DNA from: a virus
Taxonomy: Duplodnaviria > Heunggongvirae > Uroviricota > Caudoviricetes
DNA length: 30,900 nt
Reading direction: 5' to 3' (one strand)
IMG/VR virus record: IMGVR_UViG_2617270950_000011
Shown: positions 8,513 through 30,900 of the stretch, one piece after another
Layout of the letters: each line of letters starts with the position of its first letter
Numbering within the stretch: position 1 is the stretch's first letter
The notes under the pieces: model-generated
What the model was told of the DNA's origin: nothing
Database searches by the model: none
What the model saw: the letters and a program-made list of their open reading frames with translations, nothing else
Translations under genes and position numbers: made by a program

Positions 8513-8526
8513 TACATTTTTCCTGA

Positions 8527-8892: not shown

Positions 8893-8900
8893 GCCTTACC

Positions 8901-10681: not shown

Positions 10682-10684
10682 CTG

Positions 10685-12518: not shown

Positions 12519-12520
12519 AA

Positions 12521-12751: not shown

Positions 12752-12780
12752 GATTCATCTATCCTAAAAAGTTACGAAAT

Positions 12781-12804
12781 TTGATAACTAAACTTAGTTA
12801 TCAA
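12781..12804. promoter_or_regulatory. Operator-like 24-bp palindrome in the divergent ner/repressor control region
   Basis: TTGATAACTAA-AC-TTAGTTATCAA: 11-bp perfect inverted arms, with further TTGATA half-sites just upstream (~12779) and downstream (~12806); lies between the divergent Ner-like and repressor genes. Confidence 0.5.
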
Positions 12805-12935
12805 GTTTGATATAAGTATTGATCCACTTCTGCTTCATGTAAAGCAAAAAAACATCTTTCTTTTGTCTATTGTGGATCAATGGTTGCTGACAACACTAAA
12901 AGTTAATAATTTCAAATTGATAGGAAGAAAAGAAA

Positions 12936-13481: not shown

Positions 13482-13555
13482 TAGCATTAGCCCGCATTTT
13501 GCACTATATCGAGTATTTCGCATTGTTTGGAACGCCTTAAAAGACTAAAACCACA

Positions 13556-13711
13556 GTATCAAATGAGTTGCCGATTTTATAATAAATGACTAATTATTGC
13601 ACAATCGGTATCAAATAGACCTTATCCGCACATCTAGCCATCACCTGTTTTATTTCAGTATCTTACAGGTGATTTCACCTCCTTTCACTAAAACCCTTGT
13701 CGGTATCAAAT
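13556..13711 (+). repeat. Three direct copies of GTATCAAAT plus a 9-bp inverted repeat at the repressor/gene A junction
   Basis: GTATCAAAT at 13556-13564, 13608-13616 and 13703-13711; inverted repeat ATCACCTGT / ACAGGTGAT at 13640-13648 and 13665-13673; TTATCCGCA (DnaA-box-like) at 13622-13630. Function unknown. Confidence 0.4.
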
Positions 13712-15715
13712 GATTCACCTGGTTATATTAACGAGGCCGCCGCAGCATTCTCATGGAACAGCCCGAAAAAGGCTATTAACCCTTATCTGGACCCGGCGGA
13801 AGTTGCGCCGGTTTCTGCGCTTTCAAACCTGATCACTCTGTACGCTGCCGATAACGAGCAGGAACAACTGCGCCGCGAGGCACTGAGTGATCAGGTTTGG
13901 GAGCGTTATTTCTTTAATGAATCCCGTGATCCTGTCCAGCGCGAAATGGAGCAGGATAAGTTCATTAGCCGGGCAAAGTTGGCGCATGAGCAGCAGCGTT
14001 TTAACCCGGACATGGTCATTCTGGCAGACGTTAACGCCCAGCCTTCCCATATCAGCAGGCCGCTGATGCAACGTATTGAATACTTCAGCAGCCTTGGTAG
14101 GCCAAAGGCTTATTCCCGCTATTTACGTGAGACGATTAAGCCATGTCTGGAACGGCTGGAGCATGTACGCGACAGTCAGCTATCCACTTCTTTTCGCTTT
14201 ATGGCAAGCCATGAAGGGCTGGACGGCCTGCTGATTCTGCCTGAAATGAGTCAGGATCAGGTGAAACGCCTGTCCACCCTTGTTGCTGCGCATATGAGCA
14301 TGTGCCTTGATGCAGCTTGTGGCGATTTGTATGCCACCGATGACGTTAAGCCAGAAGAAATCCGCAAGACATGGGAAAAGGTGGCAGCAGAAACCCTGCG
14401 ACTGGATGTCATACCGCCTGCGTTTGAGCAACTCCGCCGGAAAAGAAACCGCCGTAAACCCGTGCCCTATGAACTCATTCCGGGTTCGCTGGCGCGTATG
14501 TTGTGCGCCGATTGGTGGTACCGGAAATTATGGAAGATGCGTTGCGAATGGCGGGAAGAGCAGTTGCGTGCTGTTTGCCTGGTCAGCAAAAAAGCATCTC
14601 CCTATGTCAGCTATGAAGCCATGATGCATAAACGTGAGCAGCGCCGTAAGTCGCTGGAGTTTTTCCGTTCTCATGAACTGGTGAACGAAGACGGCGACAC
14701 GCTGGACATGGAGGATGTGGTAAACGCCAGCAGCAGCAACCCTGCGCATCGCCGCAATGAGATGATGGCCTGTGTTAAAGGTCTGGAGCTTATCGCGGAA
14801 ATGCGCGGTGACTGCGCCGTTTTCTACACCATCACCTGTCCGTCACGTTTCCATTCCACGCTAAATAACGGCAGGCCCAACGCTGAATACGTTAATGCCT
14901 GGGCGTCTCTGCATCGTGTTCAGCAATTCCGCTTCTTTGGCATTCCGGGGCGTCAGGCTTACCGTGAACTGCGATTGCTGGCTGGTCAGGCGGCAAGGCA
15001 ACAGGGGGACAAAAAAGCAGGTGCGCCGGTACTGGATAACCCGCGCCTTGATGCAATCCTGGCTGCTGCTGATGCTGGTTGTTTTGCCACCTACATCATG
15101 AAGCAGGGCGGCGTACTGGTTCCCCGCAAATATCACCTCATCAGAACTGCTTATGAAATCAACGAAGAACCGACCGCATATGGCGATCACGGTATTCGTA
15201 TTTATGGCATCTGGTCACCCATTGCAGAGGGCAAGATCTGCACTCATGCGGTGAAGTGGAAAATGGTTCGTAAGGCCGTTGACGTTCAGGAGGCGGCAGC
15301 CGACCAGGGCGCTTGCGCCCCTTGGACTCGTGGCAATAACTGTCCCCTTGCTGAAAATTTGAACCAACAAGGGAAAGACAAATCAGCTGATGGGGATACC
15401 AGGACGGACATTACCTGCATGGATGACAAGGAGTTGCACGATTACCTGCACAGTATGAGCAAAAAAGAGCGCCGGGAACTGGCTGCAAGGTTACGCCTGG
15501 TGAAACCGAAACGGCGTAAAGACTACAAACAGCGAATTACAGACCATCAGCGACAGCAGCTCGTCTATGAACTGAAGTCCAGAGGATTTAATGGCAGCGA
15601 GAAAGAGGTCGATTTACTCCTTCGCGGCGGCAGTATTCCGTCAGGAGCAGGCCTGCGTATCTTCTATCGGAACCAGCGTTTGCAGGAAGATGATAAGTGG
15701 CGAAACCTGTATTAA
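13697..15715 (+). CDS. P2 gene A-family replication initiator homologue, apparently missing the HUH/Tyr catalytic core
   Basis: 672-aa ORF from a TTG start (true start uncertain). [23 protein letters not shown] and [27 protein letters not shown] resemble recalled P2 A segments, but no HxH or YxxxY motif occurs anywhere in the ORF. Confidence 0.7.
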
Positions 15716-15807
15716 TTACGCGGGTTAACAATTCGTGCTCTTAATAATACCAGGCATATCAGGCTGATGAACGTAAAAAAACGTTTTACATCAGTAAGAT
15801 TATTATA

Positions 15808-15827
15808 TACTGTAAATATAAACAGTG
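15808..15827 (+). promoter_or_regulatory. LexA (SOS) box
   Basis: TACTGTAAATATAAACAGTG fits CTGT-N8-ACAG with an AT-rich spacer; about 40 bp upstream of the small ORF and DinI-like gene; a second half-site (TGTATACAGTA) follows at ~15832. Confidence 0.7.
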
Positions 15828-15868
15828 GTTATGTATACAGTATTGCTTGTGGTGTCATAGGAGGAAAG

Positions 15869-16057
15869 ATGCAGGACTATTTTTTGGAGTCTTTGAAGCT
15901 CCAGCGCATTGATTTTTTTCTTAAGCTTGTAGCGGCTAGTGAGTGTAGTGATGAAGAGAAGGGGCTGGCTTTGCAGTGGGTTTCTGAACTGACAGATGAA
16001 CTCATGGCAAAAATCAGAACCCACGAATACAACCGCTCAATGGATGTCATCAGCTGA
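15869..16057 (+). CDS. Small SOS-controlled protein, possibly Tum-type antirepressor N-domain homologue
   Basis: 62 aa from the ATG at 15869, preceded by AGGAGG. Downstream of the LexA box and upstream of a DinI-like gene, the arrangement of the 186 tum locus; the function is inferred from context only. Confidence 0.4.
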   Translation: MQDYFLESLKLQRIDFFLKLVAASECSDEEKGLALQWVSELTDELMAKIRTHEYNRSMDVIS

Positions 16058-16067
16058 GGTGACTTTT

Positions 16068-16301
16068 ATGCGCATTGAAATAATGATCGATAAAGAGCAG
16101 AAGATTAGCCAGTCTACCCTAGACGCCCTTGAATCCGAGCTTTACCGCAATCTGCGCCCCCTATATCCAAAAACGGTAATTCGCATCCGCAAAGGTAGCT
16201 CTAACGGTGTGGAACTGACCGGACTGCAACTGGACGAAGAAAGAAAACAAGTGATGAAAATTATGCAGAAGGTGTGGGAAGACGACAGCTGGCTGCATTA
16301 A
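16068..16301 (+). CDS. DinI-family protein
   Basis: 77 aa: MRIEIMIDK...LDALESELYRNLRPLYP...KQVMKIMQKVWEDDSW aligns along its length with E. coli DinI (MRIEVTIAK...IDALAGELSRRIQYAFP...ISEILQETWESADDW, recalled); GAGGTG ribosome-binding site. Confidence 0.8.
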   Translation: MRIEIMIDKEQKISQSTLDALESELYRNLRPLYPKTVIRIRKGSSNGVELTGLQLDEERKQVMKIMQKVWEDDSWLH

Positions 16302-16309
16302 GAAACCTT

Positions 16310-16345
16310 GCCCCCAAGAGAATTTATTCTGATGGGGGCTAGTTT
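16310..16345 (+). terminator. Putative intrinsic terminator after the DinI-like gene
   Basis: GCCCCCA ... TGGGGGC stem with an inner AGAAT/ATTCT stem, followed by TAGTTTGGG. Confidence 0.45.
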
Positions 16346-16707
16346 GGGCAACGAGTGAAACGAGGCGTAAGGTGGGCGGCCATTTTGATAAGTGATTGTA
16401 CGCTTTGTGTTGTGAGTTCAACGGGTCGATGCAACGCTATCCTTAATCAAGGGGACGTTGCTCATACCCATCGATGCAATGAAAATCCATACTCATGGGG
16501 AAGACCAGAATGTCCCTGCCTTTTTCATTTTGTTCAGCACATGCACTATGGCCATTGCCTTCCCAAGCTAGCTATCGTAATCACTCAGCGTCAGTAAACT
16601 ACTGAAAAATTGTTTTACCTTGTATATCAATAATGCCAAATCATACCCAAAAAATCGAAAATAATTAGATCGACAGGCAGAAGGCAATGTGAATAATCTT
16701 AAAAACC

Positions 16708-16737
16708 TTGACTGCCAGTGAGGTTTGGTTCTATAAA
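16708..16737 (+). promoter_or_regulatory. Candidate sigma70 promoter for darT-darG
   Basis: TTGACT (16708-16713), 18-bp spacer, TATAAA (16732-16737); AGGA ribosome-binding site before the ATG at 16769. Confidence 0.45.
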
Positions 16738-16768
16738 TAGACTTACGAATTTGAAAGGATGAGTTGAA

Positions 16769-17350
16769 ATGAGCGAAAGGAAAAGAATTGAAGATCAGTA
16801 TCTTCTCTATCATTTAACATGTATGGATAATCTACCTAGTATTTTAGACACAGGATTAAGATCTCGTGCATCAGTAAAAGGTGAGTTTGTTGATGTGGCC
16901 GACGGTGAAATAATAACAGGTCGCGAAGCATTAAATTTGCAAACAATGGTTCCTTTTCATTTCTTTACTAAGAATCCATTTGATGGAAGAGTCCTGAAAG
17001 ATCATAAGGAAAAATCATTTTGTATTATTTCGGTTTGTCGGGCATTTGCCAAAGAAAATGGTTGGAAAGTTATCCCTAAACATCCATTATCCACCAGTTC
17101 TGTTATAGACCTCTTAGATTATGAACAAGGAATGGCCCAAATTGACTGGGAGCTTATGAATATAAGGGATTATAAAAATGCAGAATGCAAATCTGTATGT
17201 ATGGCTGAGTGTTTATCAAGTGTAACGGTCGAGCCGAAAAATTTCCATTGCATCTTTGTCAAAAATGATAACGAAAAAAAATATGTTGAAGGGTTGATAA
17301 AACAACAAGGATTAAGTATATTGATAACGATCAACACTTATATGTTCTAA
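16769..17350 (+). CDS. darT: DarT, DUF4433 ssDNA ADP-ribosyltransferase toxin
   Basis: 193 aa; N-terminal LLYHLTCMDNLPSIL matches the DarT YHITHIDNL signature; VPFHFF and a downstream AECLS (candidate catalytic Glu) motif; followed 4 nt later by a macrodomain gene. Confidence 0.8.
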   Translation: MSERKRIEDQYLLYHLTCMDNLPSILDTGLRSRASVKGEFVDVADGEIITGREALNLQTMVPFHFFTKNPFDGRVLKDHKEKSFCIISVCRAFAKENGWKVIPKHPLSTSSVIDLLDYEQGMAQIDWELMNIRDYKNAECKSVCMAECLSSVTVEPKNFHCIFVKNDNEKKYVEGLIKQQGLSILITINTYMF

Positions 17351-17354
17351 TTCT

Positions 17355-18326
17355 ATGATTAAGTATGCAAGCGGAAATCTTCTAAACTCTACATCGCAAG
17401 CTCTTGTGAATGCTGTAAACTGCCAAGGAGTCATGGGAAAGGGTATTGCTTTGGCTTTTAAAGAAACTTTTCCCTATAATTTCGAAGTTTATAAGAGAGC
17501 ATGCACCACTGGTACAATGAAAATTGGACAGGTTTTAATTGTAGAGGAAAAGGGAAAAATAATCGTAAACTTTCCCACTAAAGATAGTTGGAGAAAAAAA
17601 TCAACATATGATTTTATCTCGCAAGGCCTTGAATCTTTAGCAAAAATTATAGACGAAAAAAAAATTACATCAATATCAATACCACCTTTAGGCTGTGGTA
17701 ATGGGGGCCTCGATTGGAATAAGGTTGAGGCTCTTATTTTAAAAACTTTTCAAAATTTAGATAATGTTGATGTGGTAATTTATCCGCCTGCAACTAACAA
17801 TCAGCTTTCAAAAAATAAAAATGTTATTAATGCTAAGCATCTTTTGGTTCACTACGCCTATGGAAAATTAAAAGTTAAGCAAAAATATTCCCTTTATACA
17901 GTTTTTTATATTTGCGAATGTATTGAGAAAGCAAATCTTTTTTTATTCGATTTTAAACATGGTCGGCCATACTCTTCTGAGTTAGAAAATATTATGAAGG
18001 ATATAGCAAACCTTAAAGTTGAGTTGCAAGGAGATTTTGATGCTTTTATTGAAGATTATATTAATACTCATCAATCCAAAGAGTTACAAACCGAGTTTGG
18101 TAAACTAATCTCAACTTTAAATCCAAGTATAAGTTTTCTCAATGCTCTTAAAAATAAGATTGATTATACAGATAGCGTACATGTGATCACGAGAATTGCT
18201 AAAGAAAAAGATCATGGCTTGCATATTGACAATTTCAAAGAATATGAAAATATTGTGCAGCATTTAATTAAAAATGGATTGGTAATCGAAGATATTTTTA
18301 ACGAACTAAAAATAAAGGGAAGTTAG
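17355..18326 (+). CDS. darG: DarG, macrodomain antitoxin
   Basis: 323 aa; N-terminal ALVNAVNCQGVMGKGIALAFKETFP is a macrodomain signature; translationally coupled to darT (stop 17348-17350, ATG 17355). Confidence 0.8.
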   Translation: MIKYASGNLLNSTSQALVNAVNCQGVMGKGIALAFKETFPYNFEVYKRACTTGTMKIGQVLIVEEKGKIIVNFPTKDSWRKKSTYDFISQGLESLAKIIDEKKITSISIPPLGCGNGGLDWNKVEALILKTFQNLDNVDVVIYPPATNNQLSKNKNVINAKHLLVHYAYGKLKVKQKYSLYTVFYICECIEKANLFLFDFKHGRPYSSELENIMKDIANLKVELQGDFDAFIEDYINTHQSKELQTEFGKLISTLNPSISFLNALKNKIDYTDSVHVITRIAKEKDHGLHIDNFKEYENIVQHLIKNGLVIEDIFNELKIKGS

Positions 18327-18999
18327 TAGCGCTATTTTCAATTTTTTTGCTGAAATTGCGCATGCACACTCTTACGCATTATAGATGCGGCGTTAATCCC
18401 GCCAGGAGTGTTGTTTAATAAATTGAACTATTTCTGCATTGAAGGATCAACTTACGCATTCGCTGACAACGCAGGCACTCTCCTGGCTAAGCAGAAATTC
18501 AGAGTAACCAACTGGCACTTTTACAACAATTTTCTTATCAGTTGCGGCTCCATGACTTTCTGGTGGGATAACAAAGCAATTAAGGCGTGGTATTGTAAGT
18601 ATCCCGCATAATCATGCTAGTAACATTTGTCCCCCATGTAACCTAATTAAGGCAACTTCCGCTCTTCGCTCACAGTGAACCTCCATGTTTGTAAACCCGT
18701 ATATTTCGTTTTTCAAGTGGTCATTCAGATACGGATTTTCACTTCTCTTGGCTGTGCATGTCTATGCCGCATGAATCCGCATGATCGTTTGAGGATCGTT
18801 TTTGCTGAGGCCCCCCAGAACTGGCGGGCTTTTGCTTATGTCATGCAGGTGCATGAAAACCACTGCATAAAGCGGGCAGGCGTGGCGGGGATACGAGCGC
18901 GCGCTAACTCATAAATCTTAGATTATTAGTGGATTTATCTCATTGAAATGTGCACTATTCCCAGCATTGAGTTGTACCAGATGTCTTTATGGAGGGACT

Positions 19000-20766
19000 G
19001 TGGCTTTTGTAACTGATATTCGGCTTGAAGATAATGCTATTGCTGCACCTGCGACAGCACAGGTTATGGCTCAGAGGCTAGGATCTGTATTACGTAAGAG
19101 ATATGAAGAATTCATCCATAAAAGAGAGTGTGCACCAGGCCAAGCAGACTATGATGTAAAAATGGCTAGCAGGGCTTTAGCTGCATTCACTATGTATCAG
19201 TTAGGATGTGTGGATGATAAGTATGCAGGGGAGTCTGTATGTGATAGTAGTGAAGATGGTGGTATAGATGGAATAGCAATCAACCATAACGAAAAAATCG
19301 TTGTTGTTGTTCAATCAAAATTTCACCAATCGGGAAACGGCACTTGGACAAGAGCCGATTTTATGTGTTTTAAGGATGCTTGTGAGAAGCTACAAAGTGA
19401 AAGATACGAATTATTTGATTCCATATTGCAAAATAAAAGCGGGGAAATAAGTGCGGCTTTAAGTAGTTTTGAATACAAGTTCATCTTTGCGATGGCGCAT
19501 ACAGGTAAAAAAGGTGCTGCAGAGGAAATATTAAATGATATGCGGGAATGGCAATATCAATTAAACGCTGCAGCTTTTACACCTGAGGATGAGCCTAAAG
19601 AGAACTGGGGATTTCAGGTTCATTTAATATCCTCTGAAGATATGATGCATTGGTTACAGAATGGCTCTCGAAATCAAATTGATCTTAACAGGGTTGAAAT
19701 TGAGCGTTTTGGATTTTTGAATGAACCATATCAAGCTTTTTACGGGGCTATTAGTGGTGATCAAGTTGCAGAATGGTGGGAAGAGCATGGTGCTCGATTA
19801 TTTACAAAAAACATAAGGAATATGCTTGGTAAAACAGAAGTGAATGAGGAAATAAAAAAGACAGCTATAGATAATCCTGATATGTTTTGGTTTTATAATA
19901 ATGGGATTACTGTACTGGTTAAGGAGGTTGTTCCTCATAGACGAAACGCAGCTCCTAATATAGAGAGAGGGATTTTTGATTTTCGTGATGTAAGTGTCAT
20001 TAATGGTGCACAAACAGTCAGTAGTATTGGCGCATGTAAAGATGCGCTTGGTGAAAACATATATAGACTCAAAGTGCCAGCTAGATTCATTGTTATAGAT
20101 GATGATACTGATAATTTAACTGCAAATGCGATTACAAAAGCTAACAATTTCCAAAATAGAGTATTGGGAAGAGATTTTGCGTCGCAGCAGGCAGATCAAC
20201 ATAGATTGGCAAGGGAGTTAGTGCTTGAAGGATATCAATATCAGTTACTAAGAACAGATGAAGATCATTCACAGACAAATACGAAAGTCATTGACTTGGA
20301 TGAGGCGCTCAATGCACTCGCATGTTTAAGTAAAAATAATACGGTTGTATCGACACTAAAATCAAATCGCGGTAGGTTTTTTGAAAATTTTGAAGGCTCT
20401 CTATATAAAACTATTTTCAATCCAAGATTAAGTGGTTTAAAACTTATCAATACTGTTCTACATTTTAGAGTTATAGATAAGTTGATCGGTAAAACATTAC
20501 TATCAGTAGATAAAACTACCCATAGTCGCAAGCATTTAATTATTACGCATGGTAATAGATACTATGCGTCTGTGCTATTGAGCAACGTTTCTGGGATACA
20601 TAATAGCTCAGAAATTCTTGTTCCAGATGAAAAAAATCTTTCCGAAGAATTAAGTGCATTAATTCAACGTGCTGAAGAGTACATTGAAGATAATTACCCG
20701 AATGCCTATCCGGCAAGATTTTTTGCAAATCCAACGAAAATACAAGAGTTATACGATAATGTTTAA
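19000..20766 (+). CDS. Uncharacterised 58x-aa to 607-aa protein, tentatively AIPR-family with an N-terminal PD-(D/E)xK-like motif; candidate defence gene
   Basis: Maximal ORF 18943..20766 starts at TTG; the GTG at 19000 follows GGAGGG and the ATG at 19066 is an alternative. Motifs seen: DGGIDGIAINHNEKIVVVVQSKF, FWFYNNGITVLV, VINGAQTVSSIG. No Walker A, so not P2 Old. AT-rich. Confidence 0.5.
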   Translation: MAFVTDIRLEDNAIAAPATAQVMAQRLGSVLRKRYEEFIHKRECAPGQADYDVKMASRALAAFTMYQLGCVDDKYAGESVCDSSEDGGIDGIAINHNEKIVVVVQSKFHQSGNGTWTRADFMCFKDACEKLQSERYELFDSILQNKSGEISAALSSFEYKFIFAMAHTGKKGAAEEILNDMREWQYQLNAAAFTPEDEPKENWGFQVHLISSEDMMHWLQNGSRNQIDLNRVEIERFGFLNEPYQAFYGAISGDQVAEWWEEHGARLFTKNIRNMLGKTEVNEEIKKTAIDNPDMFWFYNNGITVLVKEVVPHRRNAAPNIERGIFDFRDVSVINGAQTVSSIGACKDALGENIYRLKVPARFIVIDDDTDNLTANAITKANNFQNRVLGRDFASQQADQHRLARELVLEGYQYQLLRTDEDHSQTNTKVIDLDEALNALACLSKNNTVVSTLKSNRGRFFENFEGSLYKTIFNPRLSGLKLINTVLHFRVIDKLIGKTLLSVDKTTHSRKHLIITHGNRYYASVLLSNVSGIHNSSEILVPDEKNLSEELSALIQRAEEYIEDNYPNAYPARFFANPTKIQELYDNV

Positions 20767-20770
20767 ACTA

Positions 20771-20794
20771 AAGGGAGGTTGCCTCCCTTTTTTT
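20771..20794 (+). terminator. Intrinsic terminator after the 607-aa gene (hairpin plus T-run)
   Basis: AAGGGAGG-ttg-CCTCCCTT followed by a run of T; the reverse strand also ends in a shorter T-rich stretch (possibly bidirectional). Confidence 0.6.
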
Positions 20795-20796
20795 AA

Positions 20797-21321
20797 TTAG
20801 AAATGGTATTCTTGGAATTCAATAACACCTTCTTTTATGAAATTGTTTATTTCTTGTAATCTTTTTTGCAATGGCAATAATTCATTACGTACAAATACTT
20901 TACTCGCCTTCTCTACATCTCCAAAGCCCCCAACATTATTAGGCATTATCCCCATCATTTGCGGCGGCACACGGTGTGCCGCCATCATGTCGTCCCGGCT
21001 CACGTTCTTGATATTTAGAAACTCATCCTTCGCCGCGACTTCTGACAACGGGATAATCTGAAGCCCGTCCTTTTTGCCGTTAGGAGAGTACATAAACAGG
21101 TTGCGGAAGTTGCCTGGCCCTTTGGCGCTTTTCATTGCGTTGCGGAGGTTGTTCACATCTTCTTGGTTCTGCGCGGCATCGGTCATGTACATGATGAAGC
21201 CTGCATGACTACCGTTAATGTAATACTTGCGGCGGAACAGCGTGGCGGACTCGTTGAGCAGGGCCGACGGAATGGCAGAAAGATAACCGGGCAGGCCGTA
21301 GACCTCCTGGTTGATGTCCGG
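20797..21321 (-). pseudogene. Portal protein (P2 gpQ-like) C-terminal fragment
   Basis: Frame open from 21321 down to the stop at 20797; ...AHRVPPQMMGIMPNNVGGFGDVEKASKVFVRNELLPLQKRLQE resembles portal C-termini (recalled). The N-terminal portion is absent. Confidence 0.5.
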
Positions 21322-22244
21322 TTATCGGCTTTGTTGCGCCCACGGTTGAATAGCGCACCGGACCAGAACGGATAAGCACTGTGTGTCAGGCTGGATGGCG
21401 TGGAAAAATAGGTTTGTCGCCATTTCTTGTGAATAGCCATACCGGAAGCCACTTTGCGCAGCTCCTGGAATTTCGGTATCCAGAAATATTCATCCAGATA
21501 CAGGTTGCCGTGATAACTCTGGGCAGTGCGGGCATTGGTGCCGAGGAAGTAAAGCGTGGCCCCGTTAGGAAGCACCATCGGATCGCCTTTCAACTCCACC
21601 TCCACTTCTTTGGCGAAGTCGATGATGTACTGCTTAAAGACGTGGGCCTGTGCCTTGCTGGCGGAAAGGAAAATCTGGTTACGTCCGGTCAGCAGGGCGT
21701 CAATCAGGGCTTCACGGGCAAAGTAAAAGGTCGCGCCGATCTGGCGTGACTTCAGCAGGTTGCGGATGCGGTTGGTTTTTCCGGCTTCCCACCAGTGGCG
21801 CTGGTAGTTGAACATGGAGGAATGGAAGATTTCTTCCAGCTTCTCAATCTGCTCATCGGTGAAAACATTCTTTTCCGGCTGACGGCGTGGGCCTTTGTTG
21901 CGGTTGGCGACGTTAGGGTTTAAGTCGGATTCGTTGCCGCCATTGTTAAACTTGCCGATCCGCGCGTGGCGCTCAGACTGGCGCGCCAGCAGGTCAATCT
22001 CTTTGAAATCTTTCCCTTCTTTGTGCTCCTTCATGATGAGCTGGCAGTAGCGTGCGGCGGTGGTGAGCTGCATCTGATCCAGCGGCCCATAGTCACCCCA
22101 CTTGTCGCGTTTTTTCCAGCTGTGAACGGTTGCAACTTTCTCGCCCAGCATTTCAGCAATGCGGGCTACGCGGTATCCCTGAAAGTACAGCAGCATGGCC
22201 TGCCGACGGGGATCGAGATCTGCGGGTGTCAGTGTGGTGTTCAT
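21183..22244 (-). pseudogene. Terminase large subunit (P2 gpP-like) N-terminal ATPase fragment running out of frame into the portal fragment
   Basis: Walker A-like [12 protein letters not shown] and Walker B-like [10 protein letters not shown]; credible sequence ends near ...[11 protein letters not shown] (~21350), after which the frame reads low-complexity junk to the stop at 21183. The nuclease half is missing. Confidence 0.7.
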
Positions 22245-22290
22245 GGCACAAACCTACAGCCTTGAATGAAGGCTTTCCCCGCCTGCGGTT

Positions 22291-22308
22291 TGTGTGGTTG
22301 TCTGGACA
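22291..22308. promoter_or_regulatory. TGT-N12-ACA dyad (Ogr-type late promoter element) in the gpP upstream region
   Basis: TGTGTGGTTGTCTGGACA; the P2 late-promoter dyad is normally centred near -55. It lies about 50 bp from the gpP start and may be the PP or PO element. Confidence 0.4.
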
Positions 22309-22632
22309 GACGGCATTGGTAATACATCTGGTGTCATTCCAGGCAAAACCATTACGGAACGACAGGCAGCGGAAGGGCTGATCTCCAACGTGCTGCGTGT
22401 GGAGCGGGCGCTGGAAAGGTGTGTGAAGCAACAGCCGCCGCAGAAAGTGTATGACGCGGTGGTGTCATTTGCCTTCAACGTGGGGACAGGCAATGCCTGC
22501 AGCTCCACGCTGGTGAAATTGCTCAATCAGCGGCGCTGGGCGGATGCGTGCCGACAGTTGCCGCGCTGGGTTTATGTGAAAGGTGTTTTTAATCAGGGGC
22601 TGGATACTGGAGCTGAAGGTGTATGTGGATGA
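22294..22632 (+). pseudogene. T4-type (GH24) phage lysozyme fragment, truncated at both ends
   Basis: VSFAFNVGTGNACSSTLVKLLNQRRWADACRQLPRWVYVKG parallels the RrrD-type lysozyme core ([41 protein letters not shown], recalled). The N-terminal catalytic region is missing and the C-terminus reads into the fibre fragment. Confidence 0.65.
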
Positions 22633-23578
22633 CCTGATGGCAAAACACCTTGCCGCACAGGACCCACATTCACAGTATGCACCCAAAGAAAGTCCGACGT
22701 TTACCGGAACCCCCAAAGCGCCAACGCCAGCGGCGGGGAATAATACCACGCAGGTTGCGACCACTGCGTTTGTTCAGGCGGCACTGACGGCCCTTATTAA
22801 TGGTGCGCCAGCCACGCTGGACACGCTGAAAGAAATAGCCGCAGCCATTAACAATGATCCGAATTTCAGTACCACCATTAACAATGTGCTGGCACTAAAA
22901 GCACCGTTGTCGAGTCCGGCACTCACCGGAACGCCAACAGCCCCCACGGCGGCGCAGTCGGTCAACAATACACAGATTGCCACTACAGCTTTTGTGAAAT
23001 CGGCAATTGCAGCAATGGTGGGGTCTGCACCTGCGGCACTGGATACACTGAACGAACTGGCGGCGGCGCTGGGGAATGACCCGAACTTTGCCACGACAAT
23101 GCTTAATGCGCTGGCAGGCAAACAACCGCTGGATAATACGCTGACTAATTTGAGTGGAAAGGATATAGAAGGAATTCTTACTTATCTTGGTTTAGGGCAT
23201 TTGGGAAATGCGGCAGGTAGAAATGTTGGTAATGCTAATAGTTATGAAATCCCTGACATGAGCTATTTTCAGCTAACAGGAAAAGGAAGCGATAATTTGT
23301 TGGTTAAAGGTCCGAATGGTTTAATTATACAAATATTTCGAAGAAATCTTCCTAATAGTACAACTATTGGTATTCCACAACAGCTTCCTATTACATATCC
23401 AACGCCATTCCCTAACGGAGTATGGGGTGTGTTTGTCACAAAAATGACATATGCACAAGTCGTTACGTCGTGCGAAAGTATATATAATGATGGGTTTACT
23501 GCTGTAACTTGTTTGACATCAGGAACCAGCAGTGATTCAAAAGTTTCAGGCGCTGTATTTATTGCATTTGGATATTAA
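22583..23578 (+). CDS. Tail fibre protein, C-terminal portion (N-terminally truncated)
   Basis: VYVDDLMAKHLAAQDPH collar-like motif, then tail-fibre repeat units (TGTPKAPTPAAGNNTTQVATTAFVQAAL..., TGTPTAPTAAQSVNNTQIATTAFVKSAI...ALDTLNELAAALGNDPNF) and a variable AT-rich tip. About 185 residues of an H-type fibre are missing upstream. Confidence 0.65.
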   Translation: MFLIRGWILELKVYVDDLMAKHLAAQDPHSQYAPKESPTFTGTPKAPTPAAGNNTTQVATTAFVQAALTALINGAPATLDTLKEIAAAINNDPNFSTTINNVLALKAPLSSPALTGTPTAPTAAQSVNNTQIATTAFVKSAIAAMVGSAPAALDTLNELAAALGNDPNFATTMLNALAGKQPLDNTLTNLSGKDIEGILTYLGLGHLGNAAGRNVGNANSYEIPDMSYFQLTGKGSDNLLVKGPNGLIIQIFRRNLPNSTTIGIPQQLPITYPTPFPNGVWGVFVTKMTYAQVVTSCESIYNDGFTAVTCLTSGTSSDSKVSGAVFIAFGY

Positions 23579-23580
23579 AT

Positions 23581-24057
23581 ATGAAAAGTTGTGATGATTA
23601 TCAACATGATTCTTCTTATGATTTCATATGGGATAAGGTAAATGCCAGATTTATGGCGTATATATTAAAAAATGAATATGAAAGAAATGGAATGTGGCCT
23701 AAGGAAGGGGTGGATATTTCAAATGAGACTGCTTGTGAATTCATGAAACAACCTCCGGAAGGAAAAATTCTTGGGGCAGATGATAATGGTATGCCTGCAT
23801 GGATTGATACGCCACCACTCACATATACAGAGTTAGTGGCTAAAGCAAAAACTGAAAAACAAGCACGTATAATAGAAGCTGTAAATTATATAAATAACAA
23901 ACAATGGCAGGGGAAAGCATTGCTTGGGAGACTGAATGCTACTGAACTGGAAATGTATAACATATGGCTTGATTATATTGAAGCATTAGAGGCTATTGAT
24001 CCATCAAAAGCCTCTGATACAGCCTTTCCGACTAAGCCATTTAACGATTCAGTCTGA
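23581..24057 (+). CDS. Tail fibre assembly protein (Tfa / gpG-like)
   Basis: 158 aa with the typical C-terminus ...QWQGKALLGRLNATELEMYNIWLDYIEALEAIDPSKA; immediately follows the fibre. Confidence 0.75.
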   Translation: MKSCDDYQHDSSYDFIWDKVNARFMAYILKNEYERNGMWPKEGVDISNETACEFMKQPPEGKILGADDNGMPAWIDTPPLTYTELVAKAKTEKQARIIEAVNYINNKQWQGKALLGRLNATELEMYNIWLDYIEALEAIDPSKASDTAFPTKPFNDSV

Positions 24058-25072
24058 GAATTGGATTAACAAACAACCGATCAATAATCAAGCTTAAACC
24101 AAGGCTGATAAAAAAAATGACTAAAGACAGGGATGTTGTTTTTAGTAAAATGTTGTCCACGATAAAAGGAATATTGAAATATTTCTCTAAGACTCTGAAA
24201 ACACAAACATGAATTAAATAAATTCCGTATGTCAGAGGTGCTATTTTTTCAATGATTAAAATTATTTTTTTATTATTGATGTTTATTTTTGTAAATGCAA
24301 TTACTATCAAGGAACACATTAACAACATATTAATCCCTGAGTCAAATGGGTATATGTTAAAGTTATATTTGTTAACGCTAAAATAAACAAACATCACATG
24401 TAGTAAAAATATAAAAGGGATGCTATATACAATATAATGTGTTTTAATGTCAACTCTTTTTAATAATCCGCCGACAACAAAATATAAAACCCATGTATCT
24501 ATGCTCTGTAATGGGATTAAATGATGGTAGTATTGAGAGGATTGGCTTAGAGAGTATGAGTATAATGAATAATAAAAAATGAAAGCCAAAACTATAATCA
24601 CCTTAAGGCTGTCGGCTTGTGGGATTTTATTGACTATGTATTGAATTGCTGGAGCGGTTAAATACAAACCGATAAAGGCATAAACAAACCAGAAATGCAC
24701 AGAGAGTGAAATAGTGCTTTTAGATATTAATGAGAAATATTCAAGTAAATTCGATGACGTTCCATTATTCCAGCTAATAATATAGTAATGTGCTAATGAA
24801 TATATTACAAAAGGGATAATAATGGCGGGGATTCTTTTTTTATAAAACAAAAGTGGAGTGCTATTTTGTCTGTTGAGTAGGTAGTATCCACTTAACATAA
24901 AGAATATTGGTAAACCAATGCGTACAATTGATTGTGCAAAAAGAGTTTGTATTTGTATACTTTCTGTTTGGTTACTGGTAACAGTATAAGCATAGTCGGG
25001 CGTGACATGAATTCCTATTACAAAAATACAACAAATAATACGTAACAGGTCTAAAGAAATATCTCTTTTCAT
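24041..25072 (-). CDS. Acyltransferase-3 family integral membrane protein (O-antigen/surface glycan acyltransferase-like)
   Basis: 343 aa, polytopic and very AT-rich; N-terminal MKRDISLDLLRIICCIFVIGIHV fits the acyltransferase_3 start (R-x-D-x-x-R ... H). Opposite strand to flanking late genes, in the P2 Z/fun position; its 3' end overlaps tfa by 17 bp. Confidence 0.7.
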   Translation of the reverse strand: MKRDISLDLLRIICCIFVIGIHVTPDYAYTVTSNQTESIQIQTLFAQSIVRIGLPIFFMLSGYYLLNRQNSTPLLFYKKRIPAIIIPFVIYSLAHYYIISWNNGTSSNLLEYFSLISKSTISLSVHFWFVYAFIGLYLTAPAIQYIVNKIPQADSLKVIIVLAFIFYYSLYSYSLSQSSQYYHHLIPLQSIDTWVLYFVVGGLLKRVDIKTHYIVYSIPFIFLLHVMFVYFSVNKYNFNIYPFDSGINMLLMCSLIVIAFTKININNKKIILIIEKIAPLTYGIYLIHVCVFRVLEKYFNIPFIVDNILLKTTSLSLVIFFISLGLSLIIDRLFVNPILRLNR

Positions 25073-25133
25073 ATAGTATTCAATCTGATTTAAATGGATG
25101 ACAGATGCGCAATAGTAAAATAGATTTGCGTAT

Positions 25134-25166
25134 AATAATCAATACATATTGAGATATATTGATTAT
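25134..25166. promoter_or_regulatory. 10-bp perfect inverted repeat upstream of the acyltransferase gene
   Basis: ATAATCAATA ... TATTGATTAT separated by 13 bp, 60-95 bp upstream of the acyltransferase ATG; candidate operator. Confidence 0.3.
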
Positions 25167-25192
25167 TTTATGAAAAGCCCTCATGGCGCTGT

Positions 25193-25210
25193 TGTGCCAT
25201 TTCCCATACA
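25193..25210 (+). promoter_or_regulatory. Ogr-dependent late promoter element (PF-like) upstream of sheath gene FI
   Basis: TGT-GCCATTTCCCAT-ACA (TGT-N12-ACA), centred about 84 bp upstream of the FI start codon, consistent with a -55 dyad and a short leader. Confidence 0.5.
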
Positions 25211-25285
25211 ATCCCCATCGCGTGCACCCTGCGCGTATCAACCAGAACATAGGCAGACCCCCTCTACAACCGGAGAGACTGCCTT

Positions 25286-26458
25286 ATGGCTCAGGATTAC
25301 CACCACGGAGTGCGCGTTGTTGAAGTCAACGAAGGCACCCGATCCATTACCACGGTGAGCACCGCCATCGTGGGCATGGTCTGCACGGGCGATGATGCCG
25401 ATGCAAAAATGTTTCCTCTTAATAAACCCGTGCTGATCACTGATGTGCTGACTGCCAGCGGTAAAGCGGGTGAGTCCGGCACGCTGGCCCGTTCGCTGGA
25501 TGCCATCGCTGACCAGGCAAAACCCGTGACCGTTGTTGTGCGTGTGCCGCAGGGTGAAACGGAAGAAGAAACCACAACCAATATCATTGGCGCAGTGACC
25601 GCCGAGGGTAAAAAAACAGGTATGAAAGCCCTGTTATCTGCCCAGTCACAGCTCGGCGTTAAACCGCGCATTCTCGGCGTGCCGGGTCACGATAACAAAG
25701 CCGTTGCGACTGAGCTGCTGAGTGTGGCGCAAAGCCTGCGCGGGTTTGCTTACCTGTCAGCGTATGGCTGCAAGACAGTGCAGGAGGCGATCACTTACCG
25801 TGAAAACTTCAGTCAGCGCGAAGGGATGCTGATCTGGCCTGACTTTACTGGCTGGGACACGGTGCTGAATGCCGAAGCAACGGCATATGCCACCGCCCGT
25901 GCGCTCGGTCTGCGCGCCAAAATTGATGAGCAGACCGGGTGGCACAAGAGCCTGTCCAACGTAGGCGTGAACGGTGTCACCGGAATTTCTGCTGATGTGT
26001 TCTGGGATCTGCAGGACCCGGCAACCGATGCGGGACTGCTTAACCAGAACGACGTCACCACGCTTATCCGCAAAGACGGTTTCCGCTTCTGGGGTTCCCG
26101 CTGCCTGAGTGATGACCCGCTCTTTGCCTTCGAAAACTACACCCGCACGGCGCAGGTACTGATGGACACGATGGCAGAAGCGCATATGTGGGCGGTGGAC
26201 AAACCGCTGAACCCGTCGCTGGCCCGCGACATTATCGAAGGTATTCGCGCCAAAATGCGCAGCCTGGTCAGTCAGGGCTATCTCATTGGTGGTGATTGCT
26301 GGCTGGACGAGTCGGTGAACGATAAAGACACGCTGAAAGCCGGAAAACTCACCATCGATTACGACTACACGCCAGTACCGCCACTTGAAAACCTGATGCT
26401 GCGTCAGCGCATCACCGATCAGTACCTGGTGAATTTCTCCAGCCAGGTAAGCGCGTAA
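25286..26458 (+). CDS. Contractile tail sheath protein (P2 gpFI-like)
   Basis: 390 aa (P2 FI is about this size); in the FI position ahead of the tube gene; GGAGAG ribosome-binding site. Confidence 0.75.
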
Positions 26459-26467
26459 GGGGGCAAC

Positions 26468-27736
26468 ATGGCTTTACCACGTAAATTAAAACATCTGAAC
26501 CTGTTTAACGACGGGAACAACTGGCAGGGGATCGTAGAGTCGCTGACGCTGCCGAAATTCACCCGCAAATATGAGAAGTATCGCGGCGGCGGTATGCCGG
26601 GGGCGGTGGATGTGGATCTGGGACTGGATGACGGCGCACTGGATACTGAATTTTCCATTGGCGGTACTGAGCTGCTGCTGTTTAAGCAGATGGGCAAAGC
26701 TACGGTGGATGGCATCCAGCTGCGCTTTACCGGCTCTATCCAGCGTGACGATACCGGGGAAGTGCAGGCCGTGGAGCTTGTGGTGCGTGGACGTCACAAA
26801 GAAGTGGATTCCGGCGAGTGGAAGACGGGCGAAAGCAACACCACCAAAGTGACCAGTACCAACAGCTACGCGAAGCTGACCATCAATTGTGAGGTGCTCT
26901 ACGAAGTGGACCTTATCAACATGGTGGAAATTGTGGACGGTGTCCGGGCGCGAAGTGCTGATTTTCGGGAAACGCTGAATACCCGCCGTGAAAAATCGTG
27001 GCACAAGACCACAGTTGGGGAAGTGGTGAAGGAAATAGCCGCGCGTCACAAGCTGAAGATGGCACTGGGTAAAGACCTGTCAGATAAACCCGTGGAACAT
27101 ATAGACCAGACTAATGAGAGTGACGGCAGTTTTCTGATGCGGCTGGCGCGCCAGTACGGTGCTATTGCGTCGGTGAAAAATGGCAATCTGTTATTCATTC
27201 GGCAGGGACAGGGTAAAAGCGCCAGCGGTAAACCACTGCCGGTGATCACTATCACACGTAAGGACGGCGACAGTCACCGCTTTACCCTGGCAGATCGCGG
27301 ATCTTACACGGGCGTAATTGCCAGCTGGTTGCATACCCGCGAACCCGCGAAGAAAGAAAGCACCACGGTGAAGCGTAAGCGCAGGACCGCAAAGCAGAAG
27401 AAAGAGCCGGAAGCGAAGCAGGGCGATTACCTGGTGGGTACGGATGAAAACGTGCTGGTACTTAATCGTACTTATGCCAACCGGGGCAACGCTGAACGAG
27501 CGGCGAAAATGCAGTGGGAACGCCTGCAACGCGGCGTTGCGTCATTCTCGCTACAACTGGCGGAAGGGCGGGCAGATCTCTACACGGAAATGCCAGTGAA
27601 AGTCAGTGGCTTTAAACAGCCGATAGATGATGCGGAATGGACCATTACGACTCTGACACATACCGTCAGCCCGGATAATGGTTTTACGACCAGTCTGGAG
27701 CTTGAAGTGAGGATTGATGATTTCGAAATGGAATGA
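26468..27736 (+). CDS. In-frame fusion of tail tube FII (N-terminal ~145 aa) to tail protein D (C-terminal ~275 aa)
   Basis: N-terminus MALPRKLKHLNLFNDGNNWQGIVESLTLPKF is tube-like; from RARSADFRETLNTRREKSWH...HIDQTNESDGSFLMRLARQYGAIASVKNGNLLFIRQ the sequence is gpD-like (recalled). The FII 3' end, E/E', T, U and D 5' end are absent. Confidence 0.7.
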   Translation: MALPRKLKHLNLFNDGNNWQGIVESLTLPKFTRKYEKYRGGGMPGAVDVDLGLDDGALDTEFSIGGTELLLFKQMGKATVDGIQLRFTGSIQRDDTGEVQAVELVVRGRHKEVDSGEWKTGESNTTKVTSTNSYAKLTINCEVLYEVDLINMVEIVDGVRARSADFRETLNTRREKSWHKTTVGEVVKEIAARHKLKMALGKDLSDKPVEHIDQTNESDGSFLMRLARQYGAIASVKNGNLLFIRQGQGKSASGKPLPVITITRKDGDSHRFTLADRGSYTGVIASWLHTREPAKKESTTVKRKRRTAKQKKEPEAKQGDYLVGTDENVLVLNRTYANRGNAERAAKMQWERLQRGVASFSLQLAEGRADLYTEMPVKVSGFKQPIDDAEWTITTLTHTVSPDNGFTTSLELEVRIDDFEME

Positions 27737-27826
27737 TTCTTCGCAATGGAGAACTTTTAAGTTTGCAAAATGGGATAATGCGGTATCATTATTGTGAATT
27801 TAGCAAAAATGGGGAGAACTCGAAAA

Positions 27827-28045
27827 ATGATGATTTGCCCACTGTGTGGAAGTGCCGCCCATACTCGCAGCAGTTTTCAGGTATCTTCATTGACCAAAGA
27901 GCGTTACAACCAGTGCCAGAACATTAACTGCAGCCATACTTTTGTTACTCATGAAACTTTTGTTCGTTCGATTGCAACGCCAAAAGAGTCAAATCCGGTT
28001 CAGCCGCATCCAATGAAATCAGGGCAGGTGGCGCTCTCTCTTTGA
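27827..28045 (+). CDS. ogr: Ogr/Delta-family zinc-finger late gene activator
   Basis: MMICPLCGSAAHTRSS...KERYNQCQNINCSHTFVTHETF...VQPHPMKSGQ parallels P2 Ogr (MFHCPLCQHAAHARTS...KERYHQCQNVNCSATFITYES...VRPHPLPSGQ, recalled); start taken at the ATGATG at 27827 after GGGGAGAA. Confidence 0.85.
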   Translation: MMICPLCGSAAHTRSSFQVSSLTKERYNQCQNINCSHTFVTHETFVRSIATPKESNPVQPHPMKSGQVALSL

Positions 28046-28125
28046 CGCTGCCGCCATTTTGTCGCCATCGTTAAAAAACAGTTCTTCTAACATCATGATT
28101 TTAAACGGTATAAATTTCAGGCAAC

Positions 28126-28168
28126 AAAAAACCCATCAACCTTGAACCGAAATGGCGGGGTTGATGGG
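28126..28168 (-). terminator. Intrinsic terminator downstream of ybjL
   Basis: 10-bp perfect stem (CCCATCAACC / GGTTGATGGG, 28132-28141 and 28159-28168) followed on the minus strand by TTTTTT (28131-28126). Confidence 0.5.
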
Positions 28169-28280
28169 CTCCACAAAATGGGGACATCAAAGAAAAGCAG
28201 TGGCACTAATTAAGACTGATGCCCTGCGGAAAAGTTCTGCGGTTGTGCAAAAAAATTTCATTTTCAGGGCAACTTCAGTT

Positions 28281-29966
28281 TTATCCTAATCCTGGCCATA
28301 CCATGACGATGATTGTCCCTGCCAGCGTCAGCAGGACGTTGGCGATTGCATAGGTGCCCGCATAGCCCAGCGCCGGGATGTTACTGCGAGCTGTATCACT
28401 GATGATCTCCATTGCCGGCGCGCAGGTACGTGCGCCCATCATTGCGCCGAACAACAGCGCGCGGTTCATTCGCAATACATAAGCACCGAACAAGAAACAG
28501 ATAACCACGGGCACCAGACTGACAATCAATCCGGCAATCAACATCTGACCGCCAATCGCGCCCAGGCCGTTATTAATACCGCTACCGGCGCTCAGACCAA
28601 CGCCTGCCATAAACACCATCAAGCCGAACTCTTTCACCATGCTTAATGCACCCTGCGGAATGTAACCGAAGGTCGGGTGGTTAGCACGCATAAAGCCCAG
28701 CATAATTCCGGCGAATAACAACCCGGCAGCGTTCCCCATGCCGAAACTGAATGTGCTGAACTGGAAGGTGATCATCCCGATCATCAGCCCAATAACAAAG
28801 AAGGCGCAGAATGCCAGCAGGTCAGTGACCTGGCTGTGAATCGAGATAAAGCCGATGCGATCGGCGATGGTTTTTACGCGGCGGGCATCGCCGCTGACTT
28901 GTAAAACGTCACCTTTGTTAAGCACGACGTTGTCATCTATCGGCATCTCAATCTGGCTACGAATGACGCGGTTAAGGAAGCAACCGTGATCGGTCAACTT
29001 CAGTTGTGCGAGACGTTTACCTACAGCGTTATGGTTTTTAACGACCACTTCTTCAGTGACGATACGCATGTCGAGAAGGTCACGATCGAAAACTTCTTTA
29101 CCGTTACGGAAGCTGGGATCGAGTCGGGCATGGGCGTCGGGATAGCCTACCAACGCTATTTCATCGCCCATTTGTAGCACGGCATCACCGTCTGGATTTG
29201 CCAGAATCCCGTTACGTCGAATACGTTCAATGTAGCAGCCGGTTTGTCGATAAATACCCAGTTCACGCAGATTTTTGCCGTCGGTCCAGGCCACCAGTTC
29301 CGGGCCGACGCGATAGGCGCGGATCACCGGTAAATAAACCTTACGGTTGGCATCAGTGTCCAGGCCACGTTCGCGGGCGATTTGCTGGGCGCTGGTCTGT
29401 AAGTCCTGATGCTGCAATTTCGGCAAGTAACGCGCACCAACAATCAAACTCACCAGACCGATTAAATAGGTTAAGGCATACCCGAGGCTCAGATTATCCA
29501 GTGCCAGTGAGAGCTGCCTGCTTTCCATGCCGGAATGACGCAGTGTATCGCCAGCACCGACCAGAACCGGTGTCGACGTCATAGAGCCTGCTAACATACC
29601 GGCCGTCAGGCCAATATCCCAGCCAAACAGCTTACCTAACCCTAAGGCGATCACCAGCGCACTGCCAACCATCACCAGTGCTAACATTAGGTAATTTTTC
29701 CCATCGCGAAAAAAAATGGAAAAAAAGTTCGGTCCGGCTTCGACCCCGACGCAGAAAATAAACAGCATAAAGCCAAGATTAAGCGCATCGGTGTTAATGC
29801 TGAAATGTTGTTGGCCTAATAACAGCGATACGACTAAAACGCCAATGGAATTACCCAGTTGGATCGAACCAAGTCGTAACTTTCCGAGACATAGCCCAAG
29901 CGCGAGGACCACAAATAATAACAGAATGTAATTCCCATTTAACAATTCGGCGACGTTTATATTCAC
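28281..29966 (-). CDS. ybjL: Putative transporter YbjL (host gene)
   Basis: 561-aa polytopic membrane protein with two central soluble domains; recognised as E. coli YbjL from sequence and from the ybjL-ybjM-grxA arrangement. Confidence 0.85.
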
Positions 29967-30235
29967 GGAGGCTAACTTCTTGTTTACTAGTAAGCTGTTG
30001 AAAGAAATGGTAATTTACGATAATGTTTTTTACCAGAATTCAGGGCGCAGATTCATTCAGCGCACCTAAACGATAGTAAAGCAACAATATATTTTACTAG
30101 TGTAATCACATTAGGTATCAACGGCTATATGAATTGCGTTGGCCTATATTAGCATGGAATGCGAAGCGGCTTTATCTTACTGAACGCCACACTGGCGAAA
30201 AATGTGTTCGATAGACGCAGTGTCAGGAGGAACGA

Positions 30236-30613
30236 GTGAAACATAAACAACGTTGGGCGGGGGCAATCTGCTGTTTTGTCCTCTTCATTGTGGTGTGCCT
30301 TTTTCTGGCGACGCACATGAAAGGCGCTTTTCGGGCTGCCGGGCATCCTGAAATCGGCTTGCTATTTTTCATTCTTCCTGGAGCAGTCGCCAGCTTCTTT
30401 TCACAGCGTAGAGAAGTCCTGAAACCTCTGTTTGGCGCAATGCTGGCGGCACCCTGTTCGATGCTCATTATGCGGCTGTTTTTTTCACCGACGCGCTCAT
30501 TCTGGCAAGAGCTGGCATGGTTACTAAGCGCGGTGTTCTGGTGTGCGCTGGGGGCACTGTGTTTCTTATTTATCAGTAGTTTGTTTAAACCACAGCACAG
30601 AAAAAATCAGTAA
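30236..30613 (+). CDS. ybjM: Inner membrane protein YbjM (host gene)
   Basis: 125-aa hydrophobic ORF between ybjL and grxA, as in E. coli K-12. Confidence 0.8.
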   Translation: MKHKQRWAGAICCFVLFIVVCLFLATHMKGAFRAAGHPEIGLLFFILPGAVASFFSQRREVLKPLFGAMLAAPCSMLIMRLFFSPTRSFWQELAWLLSAVFWCALGALCFLFISSLFKPQHRKNQ

Positions 30614-30633
30614 AGCCCTCAACGCGAGGGCTT
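30613..30633. terminator. Hairpin between convergent ybjM and grxA
   Basis: AAGCCCTC-aacgc-GAGGGCTT immediately after the ybjM stop and before the grxA stop. Confidence 0.5.
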
Positions 30634-30642
30634 GTCAGACGA

Positions 30643-30900
30643 TCAGGCGTCCAGATTTTCTTTCACCCATGCAGCAAAATCGGTATAGCCGCCGATATGT
30701 TGCTGATCGACAAAAATCTGCGGCACGGTTTCTACGGGTTTACCTGCCTTTTGTTGTAGATCTTCTTTAGTGATCCCTTCCGCACGAATATCTACATACT
30801 GATACTGAAAATCATCGCGTTCATTGCTCAATTTCTCAGCCAGATCTTTTGCACGCACACAGTAAGGGCAACCCGAACGACCAAAAATAACGGTTTGCAT
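30643..30900 (-). CDS. grxA: Glutaredoxin 1 (host gene)
   Basis: 85 aa, MQTVIFGRSGCPYCVRAKDLAEKL... with the CPYC active site; essentially identical to E. coli GrxA as recalled; start codon at the window's last bases. Confidence 0.9.
   Translation of the reverse strand: MQTVIFGRSGCPYCVRAKDLAEKLSNERDDFQYQYVDIRAEGITKEDLQQKAGKPVETVPQIFVDQQHIGGYTDFAAWVKENLDA

Follow-up and report, generated by a model that had tools for sequence, protein, structure and literature searches.

The open reading frame at positions 26468–27736 of the window (the whole stretch of DNA analysed, 30,900 nucleotides) joins most of the tail tube gene FII of a P2/186-like prophage to the larger part of the baseplate hub gene D. 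This fusion is very probably a chimeric pseudogene, a remnant of neutral prophage decay that arose through one homology-independent deletion, and nothing was found that contradicts a deletion origin. The fusion is an ordinary by-product of prophage decay, with many sister versions already in public databases; events of this type are familiar, and the sequence itself was already public and flagged as pseudogene fragments by the NCBI pipeline. It provides a well-resolved case of decay by homology-independent deletions, about a third of which yield chimeric reading frames that are called as proteins, and the databases consequently seem to contain more 'multidomain' proteins than they do.

Composition of the fusion reading frame and the deletion junction

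The right end of the window contains ybjL, ybjM and grxA, which places it on the Escherichia coli chromosome. The intact P2/186-like prophage of E. coli CFT073 (NC_004431.1, about 911–942 kb), located at the same site between rcdA and ybjL, was used as the reference. Its genes are ordered tail fibre, fibre assembly, acyltransferase, FI, FII, E, E', T, U, D and ogr. The window shares with it the site, the gene order, the acyltransferase cargo and orthologous FI, FII, D and ogr genes, and the retained DNA is 96–97% identical. Unlike the window, CFT073 has FII (171 aa), E, E', T (1025 aa), U and D (366 aa) as separate and complete genes.

The fusion begins 10 nt past the stop codon of the 390-residue sheath gene FI (25286–26458), and a GGGGG Shine-Dalgarno-like run lies 5 nt 5' of its ATG. 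Its components are:

26468..27736, plus strand: fusion reading frame, 422 aa, ATG start, single uninterrupted frame
26468..26943, plus strand: FII-derived part, tube codons 1–159 out of 171, without the terminal 12 residues or the stop codon
26944..27736, plus strand: D-derived part, baseplate hub gpD codons 104–366 with the native stop; the N-terminal 103 residues are gone

Two Pfam domains were detected, Phage_tube (PF04985) on residues 4–159 (profile positions 1–154 of 165, E = 8.5e-52; 175.7 bits, cut-off 22.4) and Phage_GPD (PF05954) on residues 172–401 (profile positions 78–302 of 305, E = 1.5e-24; 87.2 bits, cut-off 30.1), and both are truncated precisely where they join. The product is neither a complete FII, codons 160–171 and the stop being deleted and the tube profile ending at 154 of 165, nor a complete gpD, codons 1–103 being deleted and the profile beginning at position 78 of 305 compared with 28 in intact D. 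A search of the PDB matched residues 1–161 to residues 1–158 of 168 of the pyocin R2 tube (3j9q/6pyt, E = 1e-24) and residues 159–410 to residues 91–319 of 6u5h_C, a chain of the pyocin R2 hub region (E = 7e-23), while tblastn gave 97% identity between the D half and the gpD of intact phages. The first-pass annotation, made from the sequence alone, had described a single frame beginning as a tube protein and continuing as the C-terminal three-quarters of gpD, and this description held, with 263 of the 366 gpD residues (72%) retained in the 422-residue product.

Alignment with the CFT073 locus gave two collinear blocks that meet at the junction:

25000..26943 of the window: CFT073 locus 9001–10944, up to FII nt 476, 96.2% identity (BLAST)
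26943..28300 of the window: CFT073 locus 15331–16688, D nt 308 onward through ogr into ybjL, 96.0% identity (BLAST)
26943..26944, plus strand: deletion junction, ...GACGGTGT|CCGGGCG..., from the three-way alignment of the window with CFT073 FII and CFT073 D

The FII half is collinear with CFT073 FII nt 1–476 (156/158 residues identical) and the D half with CFT073 D from nt 308 (253/263 residues identical). The sequence missing relative to CFT073 is 4386 bp, or 3 x 1462, and comprises the last 40 nt of FII, the whole of E, E', T (1025 codons) and U, and the first 307 nt of D. A hybrid codon, GT|C, is formed at the joint and encodes Val, as in FII. The earlier proposal that one frame-preserving deletion had taken out everything from the 3' end of FII through E/E', T and U to the 5' end of D is thus borne out by the collinear 4386-bp gap, and the breakpoint, which was to be placed by alignment, lies between FII codon 159 and D codon 104. 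The short direct repeats that had been suggested as a further check at the junction are absent; in the three-way alignment no repeat was found and the parental sequences share 1 nt (T). Slipped-strand or repeat-mediated deletion was considered for the window allele and is ruled out, since only 1 nt is shared.

In the preferred sequence of events, a P2/186-like prophage located between rcdA and ybjL lost 4386 bp of its late tail operon, FI-FII-E-E'-T-U-D, in one illegitimate (homology-independent) deletion, which joined FII codon 159 to D codon 104. By chance the deleted length is a multiple of three, such that a ribosome initiating at the FII ribosome-binding site would read to the native D stop. 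Loss of the tail assembly chaperones, the tape measure and gpU inactivated the phage, and the deletion is probably the oldest lesion common to a small E. coli clade whose members later lost differing further parts. The open frame would then be a one-in-three accident, presumably kept as the event is recent.

Recurrence, distribution and age of the deletion

Nine deletion alleles of the tail operon at rcdA|ybjL were examined in complete E. coli genomes, and their end points are all different. Each allele was translated from the upstream start codon and was counted as in frame when translation reached the native stop of the downstream gene. Five of the nine were in frame (the window, AREA_497, AF56, OHT76-1 and STEC308) and four were out of frame (EC581, FDN-9, ETEC4068 and IH5). 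The in-frame joints other than that of the window are:

AF56: FII::D, 450 aa, WP_509962038.1
OHT76-1: FII::T
STEC308: FI::U
AREA_497: T::D

The excess of in-frame alleles over one-third was not significant, either for the nine alleles (5/9, p = 0.14) or for all same-strand junctions seen (about 7/15, p = 0.20), in a sample biased by the ranking of hits. As the in-frame fraction does not differ from one-third, the frame of the window allele needs no special explanation. The overlaps of the BLAST blocks at the junctions, which are upper bounds on the number of shared bases, ranged from 0 (ETEC4068, with 2 filler bases) to 17 nt (AF56). The other alleles resemble the window in being internal deletions of the tape measure region, mostly at the same site and in the same prophage family. 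They differ in their end points, which are particular to each allele, and the joint of FII codon 159 with D codon 104 is confined to the small clade of the window. All eight of the other alleles (EC581, AREA_497, FDN-9, AF56, OHT76-1, STEC308, ETEC4068 and IH5) keep the 3' part of D and ogr beside ybjL; this retention may reflect selection, or merely the way in which the hits were picked.

Among the 5426 complete E. coli genomes, two contained the exact 80-bp junction, namely LR-64-2 and E423. The exact fusion protein was found in 11 public contigs, in two genomic contexts; in the context with portal, terminase and lysozyme fragments, the portion in common with the window (16468–30900) is identical. 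A further 130 contigs encode a one-residue variant. In LR-64-2 and E423 the PGAP annotation gives two adjoining partial pseudogenes, a tube gene without its C-terminus and a VgrG/Pvc8-family gene without its N-terminus, and in other records the same family of reading frames is listed as 'phage major tail tube protein'. The naming of this reading frame is inconsistent: certain records treat it as intact, under 'phage major tail tube protein' or 'VgrG/Pvc8 family protein', and others as two pseudogenes.

The window, E423 and LR-64-2 have the FII-D junction in common at 99.98–100% identity, and the rest of the prophage differs between them. Each retains different sequence:

Window: lysozyme fragment and 5'-truncated tail fibre gene
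E423: part of I and an intact fibre gene
LR-64-2: parts of O and J

The further deletions in the three are mutually exclusive, each keeping something that another has lost, and their common ancestor therefore had those regions and already carried the FII-D deletion. This deletion was probably the earliest lesion, or among the earliest, because the loss of the chaperones, the tape measure and gpU kills the phage, and the later losses were independent of one another. The FII-D junction is consequently a handy clonal marker of a lineage in which the tail operon was deleted first and later decay proceeded independently.

All copies of the fusion are at least 99.9% identical, which leaves no time for decay and no power for a dN/dS test of selection. 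The window carries a G141C substitution (TGT for GGT, codon 141 at 26888–26890) at a position that is Gly in CFT073, in the 130-contig variant and in the pyocin R2 tube, and six other single- or double-residue variants of the fusion have been recorded besides. These very few sequence differences would fit relaxed constraint.

Late promoter, folding and possible function of the product

The first-pass annotation placed the fusion downstream of an intact FI gene and a recognisable Ogr-type late promoter, and both elements stood up to closer comparison. The features that bear on expression are:

25193..25210, plus strand: TGT-N12-ACA dyad, TGTGCCATTTCCCATACA, candidate Ogr-dependent P_F-type element, 76 nt before the FI start
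25286..26458, plus strand: tail sheath gene FI, intact, 390 aa, with domains Gp18_domIII_N, Phage_sheath_1 and Phage_sheath_1C
27762..27789, plus strand: sigma-70-like site TTTGCA-16-TATCAT from a consensus scan, possibly a promoter of ogr itself
27827..28045, plus strand: ogr/B-type late activator, intact, 72 aa, Pfam Ogr_Delta E = 6.7e-22, WP_000972391.1 (PGAP, identical genomes)

The late promoters of P2 depend on Ogr and have the consensus TGT-N12-ACA, and P_F heads the operon FI-FII-E-E'-T-U-D (PMC3931495). In an alignment of diverged relatives, from which the EC581 row was left out, TTGTG...TACAA and the downstream AACATAGG are kept although the upstream sequence otherwise differs, which supports the candidate at 25193–25210. 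The motif is not enriched in the window, where 9 copies were found compared with 7 expected, and the evidence from the sigma-70-like sites is weak, with 2 in the scanned region compared with 3.0 expected. FI has the same length as its CFT073 counterpart, is identical at 383 of 390 positions, has all three sheath domains and is annotated by PGAP as intact in identical genomes. The zinc finger of ogr, CX2CX22CX4C, is kept. The gene set of the P_F operon is incomplete in the window, E, E', T and U being absent and FII and D partial. Given the dyad, the intact FI and the intact ogr, it is plausible that FI and the chimera would be transcribed from the candidate P_F-type promoter in the presence of the resident Ogr, or of an incoming Ogr/B/delta activator from a P2-like phage or a P4-type satellite; the first-pass annotation had rated expression of the fusion as probable whenever Ogr is made. 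Further TGT-N12-ACA dyads are present at 22233–22250 and 22291–22308, in the retained divergent P/O promoter region, of which the rightward one now directly faces the lysozyme fragment.

The position of the breakpoint within the hub was compared with structural models and profiles. The AlphaFold model of intact gpD was poor, having been built from an alignment of close relatives only, with a mean pLDDT of 38 and confident prediction at residues 112–190 only. Comparison of the profile of gpD 108–193 with residues 91–180 of the Mu-type hub encoded in the window was statistically weak (E = 0.049, probability 1%); the second domain of that Mu-type hub corresponds to Pfam Gp44-like_2nd at residues 90–176. 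This profile comparison and the PDB match, which starts at residue 91 of 6u5h_C, offer a hint that the D breakpoint may lie a few residues before hub domain 2, with roughly the whole first hub domain lost. A breakpoint near a probable domain boundary may in turn give a partly folded product. A working tail is impossible from the window remnant, which is without E, E', T, U, V, W, J, I and the head and lysis genes, and the chimera itself would have no tail function, its tube C-terminus, first hub domain and assembly partners being missing.

The fusion would be of biological interest only if the chimera does interfere with incoming P2-like phages. Such a role can be envisaged if the activator of a P2-like phage or P4-type satellite, or the resident Ogr, switched on the resident late promoter, and the chimera together with surplus sheath then poisoned the tail assembly of the invader, as a form of exclusion or decoy. 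In keeping with this, the reading frame, the Shine-Dalgarno run, FI, ogr and the TGT-N12-ACA dyad are all intact, the fusion was kept while three sub-lineages independently lost other parts of the prophage, the hub breakpoint near the boundary of domains 1 and 2 might allow the product to fold, the remnant also carries known defence cargo (DarT/macro and AIPR), and in-frame alleles numerically exceed one-third (5/9). However, that excess is not significant (p = 0.14), the copies are so nearly identical that retention without selection suffices, the sister junctions are scattered and many alleles are not in frame or have no FII or no D at all. Moreover, the window allele has mutated a conserved Gly (G141C), several single-residue variants exist, and the allele is rare (2/5426 complete genomes). 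Selection for a tube-hub chimera of this kind is accordingly considered very improbable. The broader proposition, that the chimera and analogous in-frame fusions of other genes to the gpD C-terminus have been retained in E. coli as Ogr/delta-inducible, dominant-negative tail poisons against P2-like phages or P4-type satellites, in which a tube domain in place of the tube-like first hub domain, attached to hub domains 2–4, could cap or mis-nucleate tubes, is given equally little credence.

Other possible origins, related elements and the remainder of the remnant

A joint of the same form could have been produced by recombination between two P2-like prophages, in tandem or at separate loci, or by faulty assembly. 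Several P2-like prophages often occur in one E. coli, the junction query matching a median of 2 sites, and at most 8, in the genomes that it hits, and a join that is nearly free of homology could in principle connect any two prophage copies. Against recombination, both flanks, tfa-acyltransferase-FI on the left and ogr-ybjL-ybjM-grxA on the right, correspond exactly to those of the single CFT073 prophage at this site, and the divergence from CFT073 is equal on either side of the junction (96.2% and 96.0%). An assembly artefact is excluded by the identical junction in two complete genomes and many independent draft assemblies. Taken together, an origin of this kind has only a slight chance of being correct, and a single deletion within one prophage is preferred.

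A large protein collection was searched with the fusion, giving 1751 hits, of which the best 120 were inspected. Among these 120, the proteins containing both tube and GPD domains are all 77–100% identical to the query, and those with a named source are all from E. coli. At least nine different in-frame FII::D junctions were found among the best 120 of the 1751:

422 aa: FII 1–159, D from 104
423 aa: FII 1–145, D from 89
400 aa: FII 1–150, D from 117
420 aa: FII 1–95, D from 42
430 aa: FII 1–95 with 2 extra residues (NR), D from 34
431 aa: FII 1–91, D from 27
341 aa: FII 1–90, D from 117
253 aa: FII 1–91, D from 205
450 aa: FII 1–77, a short linker from the U 3' end in another frame, full-length D

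In the same best 120 of 1751, at least 14 other Pfam families also provide in-frame fusion partners for the C-terminal part of gpD, among them sheath, tail fibre, tape measure, gpU, gpV, GPO scaffold and major capsid, and also terminase small subunit, lysozyme, Dam methylase and CII. Counts of fusions compared with truncated D proteins in this collection were tried as a test and dropped, as clustering hides truncations within full-length clusters.

It is barely credible that the fusion occurs naturally as a two-domain tube-hub protein in some unusual element with a contractile tail: although it is one uninterrupted frame bearing two Pfam domains, and some records list such frames as intact (WP_509962038.1 from AF56, and 'phage major tail tube protein' for the exact sequence family), each domain is truncated exactly at the joint, the DNA of each half is ~96% identical to a gene of its own in the intact prophage of the same site, where the two genes lie 4.4 kb apart, the inspected tube and GPD matches are close relatives (77–100% identical, E. 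coli where the source is named) with differing junctions, and the element is without tape measure, chaperones, gpU and all baseplate genes. The first-pass annotation had allowed that alignment might reveal a natural multidomain protein; the collinearity with two CFT073 genes and the varying sister junctions instead identify two concatenated gene fragments.

The deletion remnant in the window has a parallel in E. coli K-12, whose cryptic P2 remnant consists of ogrK and the gpD fragment yegZ. Like the window, the K-12 remnant has been deleted down to its right end, with ogr and the 3' part of D beside the border of the attachment site. It was reportedly described by Slettan and colleagues in 1992 in J Bacteriol. 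It differs from the window in that its D fragment is not known to be fused to a tube gene, no sheath gene or P_F promoter is known to remain in it, and it occupies another chromosomal site. The gene names ogrK and yegZ occur together in PMC3946193 and PMC10652928, and a search of the literature found no paper describing the K-12 ogrK/yegZ remnant. The R-type pyocins and other tailocins, which are domesticated P2-like tails (3j9q, 6pyt, 6u5h), contain the same tube and hub families as the fusion. The tailocins keep full sets of tail and baseplate genes, with tube and hub separate, whereas in the window the tape measure, chaperone, gpU, spike and baseplate wedge genes are gone, so that no particle can be built.

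The window as a whole contains a defective P2-like prophage in which five deletion junctions and a Mu-like insertion were mapped relative to CFT073, and much of the head, lysis and baseplate regions is also missing. Positions 1–13727 are a GC-rich (0.56–0.63) Mu-like prophage segment on the minus strand, with genes for Gp48, baseplate J, GP46, a gp44-type hub, DNA circularisation protein N, tape measure, gp41, sheath and Gp37. Past these genes are a 381-residue reading frame with the Mu transposase DNA-binding domain only and an HTH repressor-like reading frame. The Mu-like segment itself looks internally deleted, because the transposase fragment adjoins gp37 with no head genes between. It splits the P2-like gene A at about nt 35, homology to gene A of E423 and CFT073 starting at 13728. 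At 14879–14881 gene A has a 390-bp in-frame deletion (130 codons, 3-nt overlap) relative to E423 and CFT073, the second in-frame deletion of this remnant.

Three further deletions in the P2-like remnant are marked by junctions at 21309–21323, 22296–22302 and 22606. One joins the 5' part of terminase P to an internal fragment of portal Q, another the P/O promoter region to nt 156 of lysozyme K, and the third nt 466 of lysozyme K to nt 468 of tail fibre H, out of frame, with a lysozyme stop 26 nt past the joint. E423 has the Q/P junction and not the others. Defence cargo is located at 16769–18326 and 18943–20766, in a variable region between gene A/DinI and the portal gene, and consists of DarT, an ssDNA ADP-ribosyltransferase, with a macro-domain partner, and an AIPR abortive-infection-type protein; at this position CFT073 has other genes (hypothetical proteins and a TIGR02391 protein). 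A moron-like, AT-rich gene (GC about 0.31) of the acyltransferase-3 family lies on the minus strand at 24041–25072, between the fibre assembly gene and FI. The same acyltransferase cargo is present in the intact CFT073 prophage, and EC581 and ETEC4068 carry a different allele.
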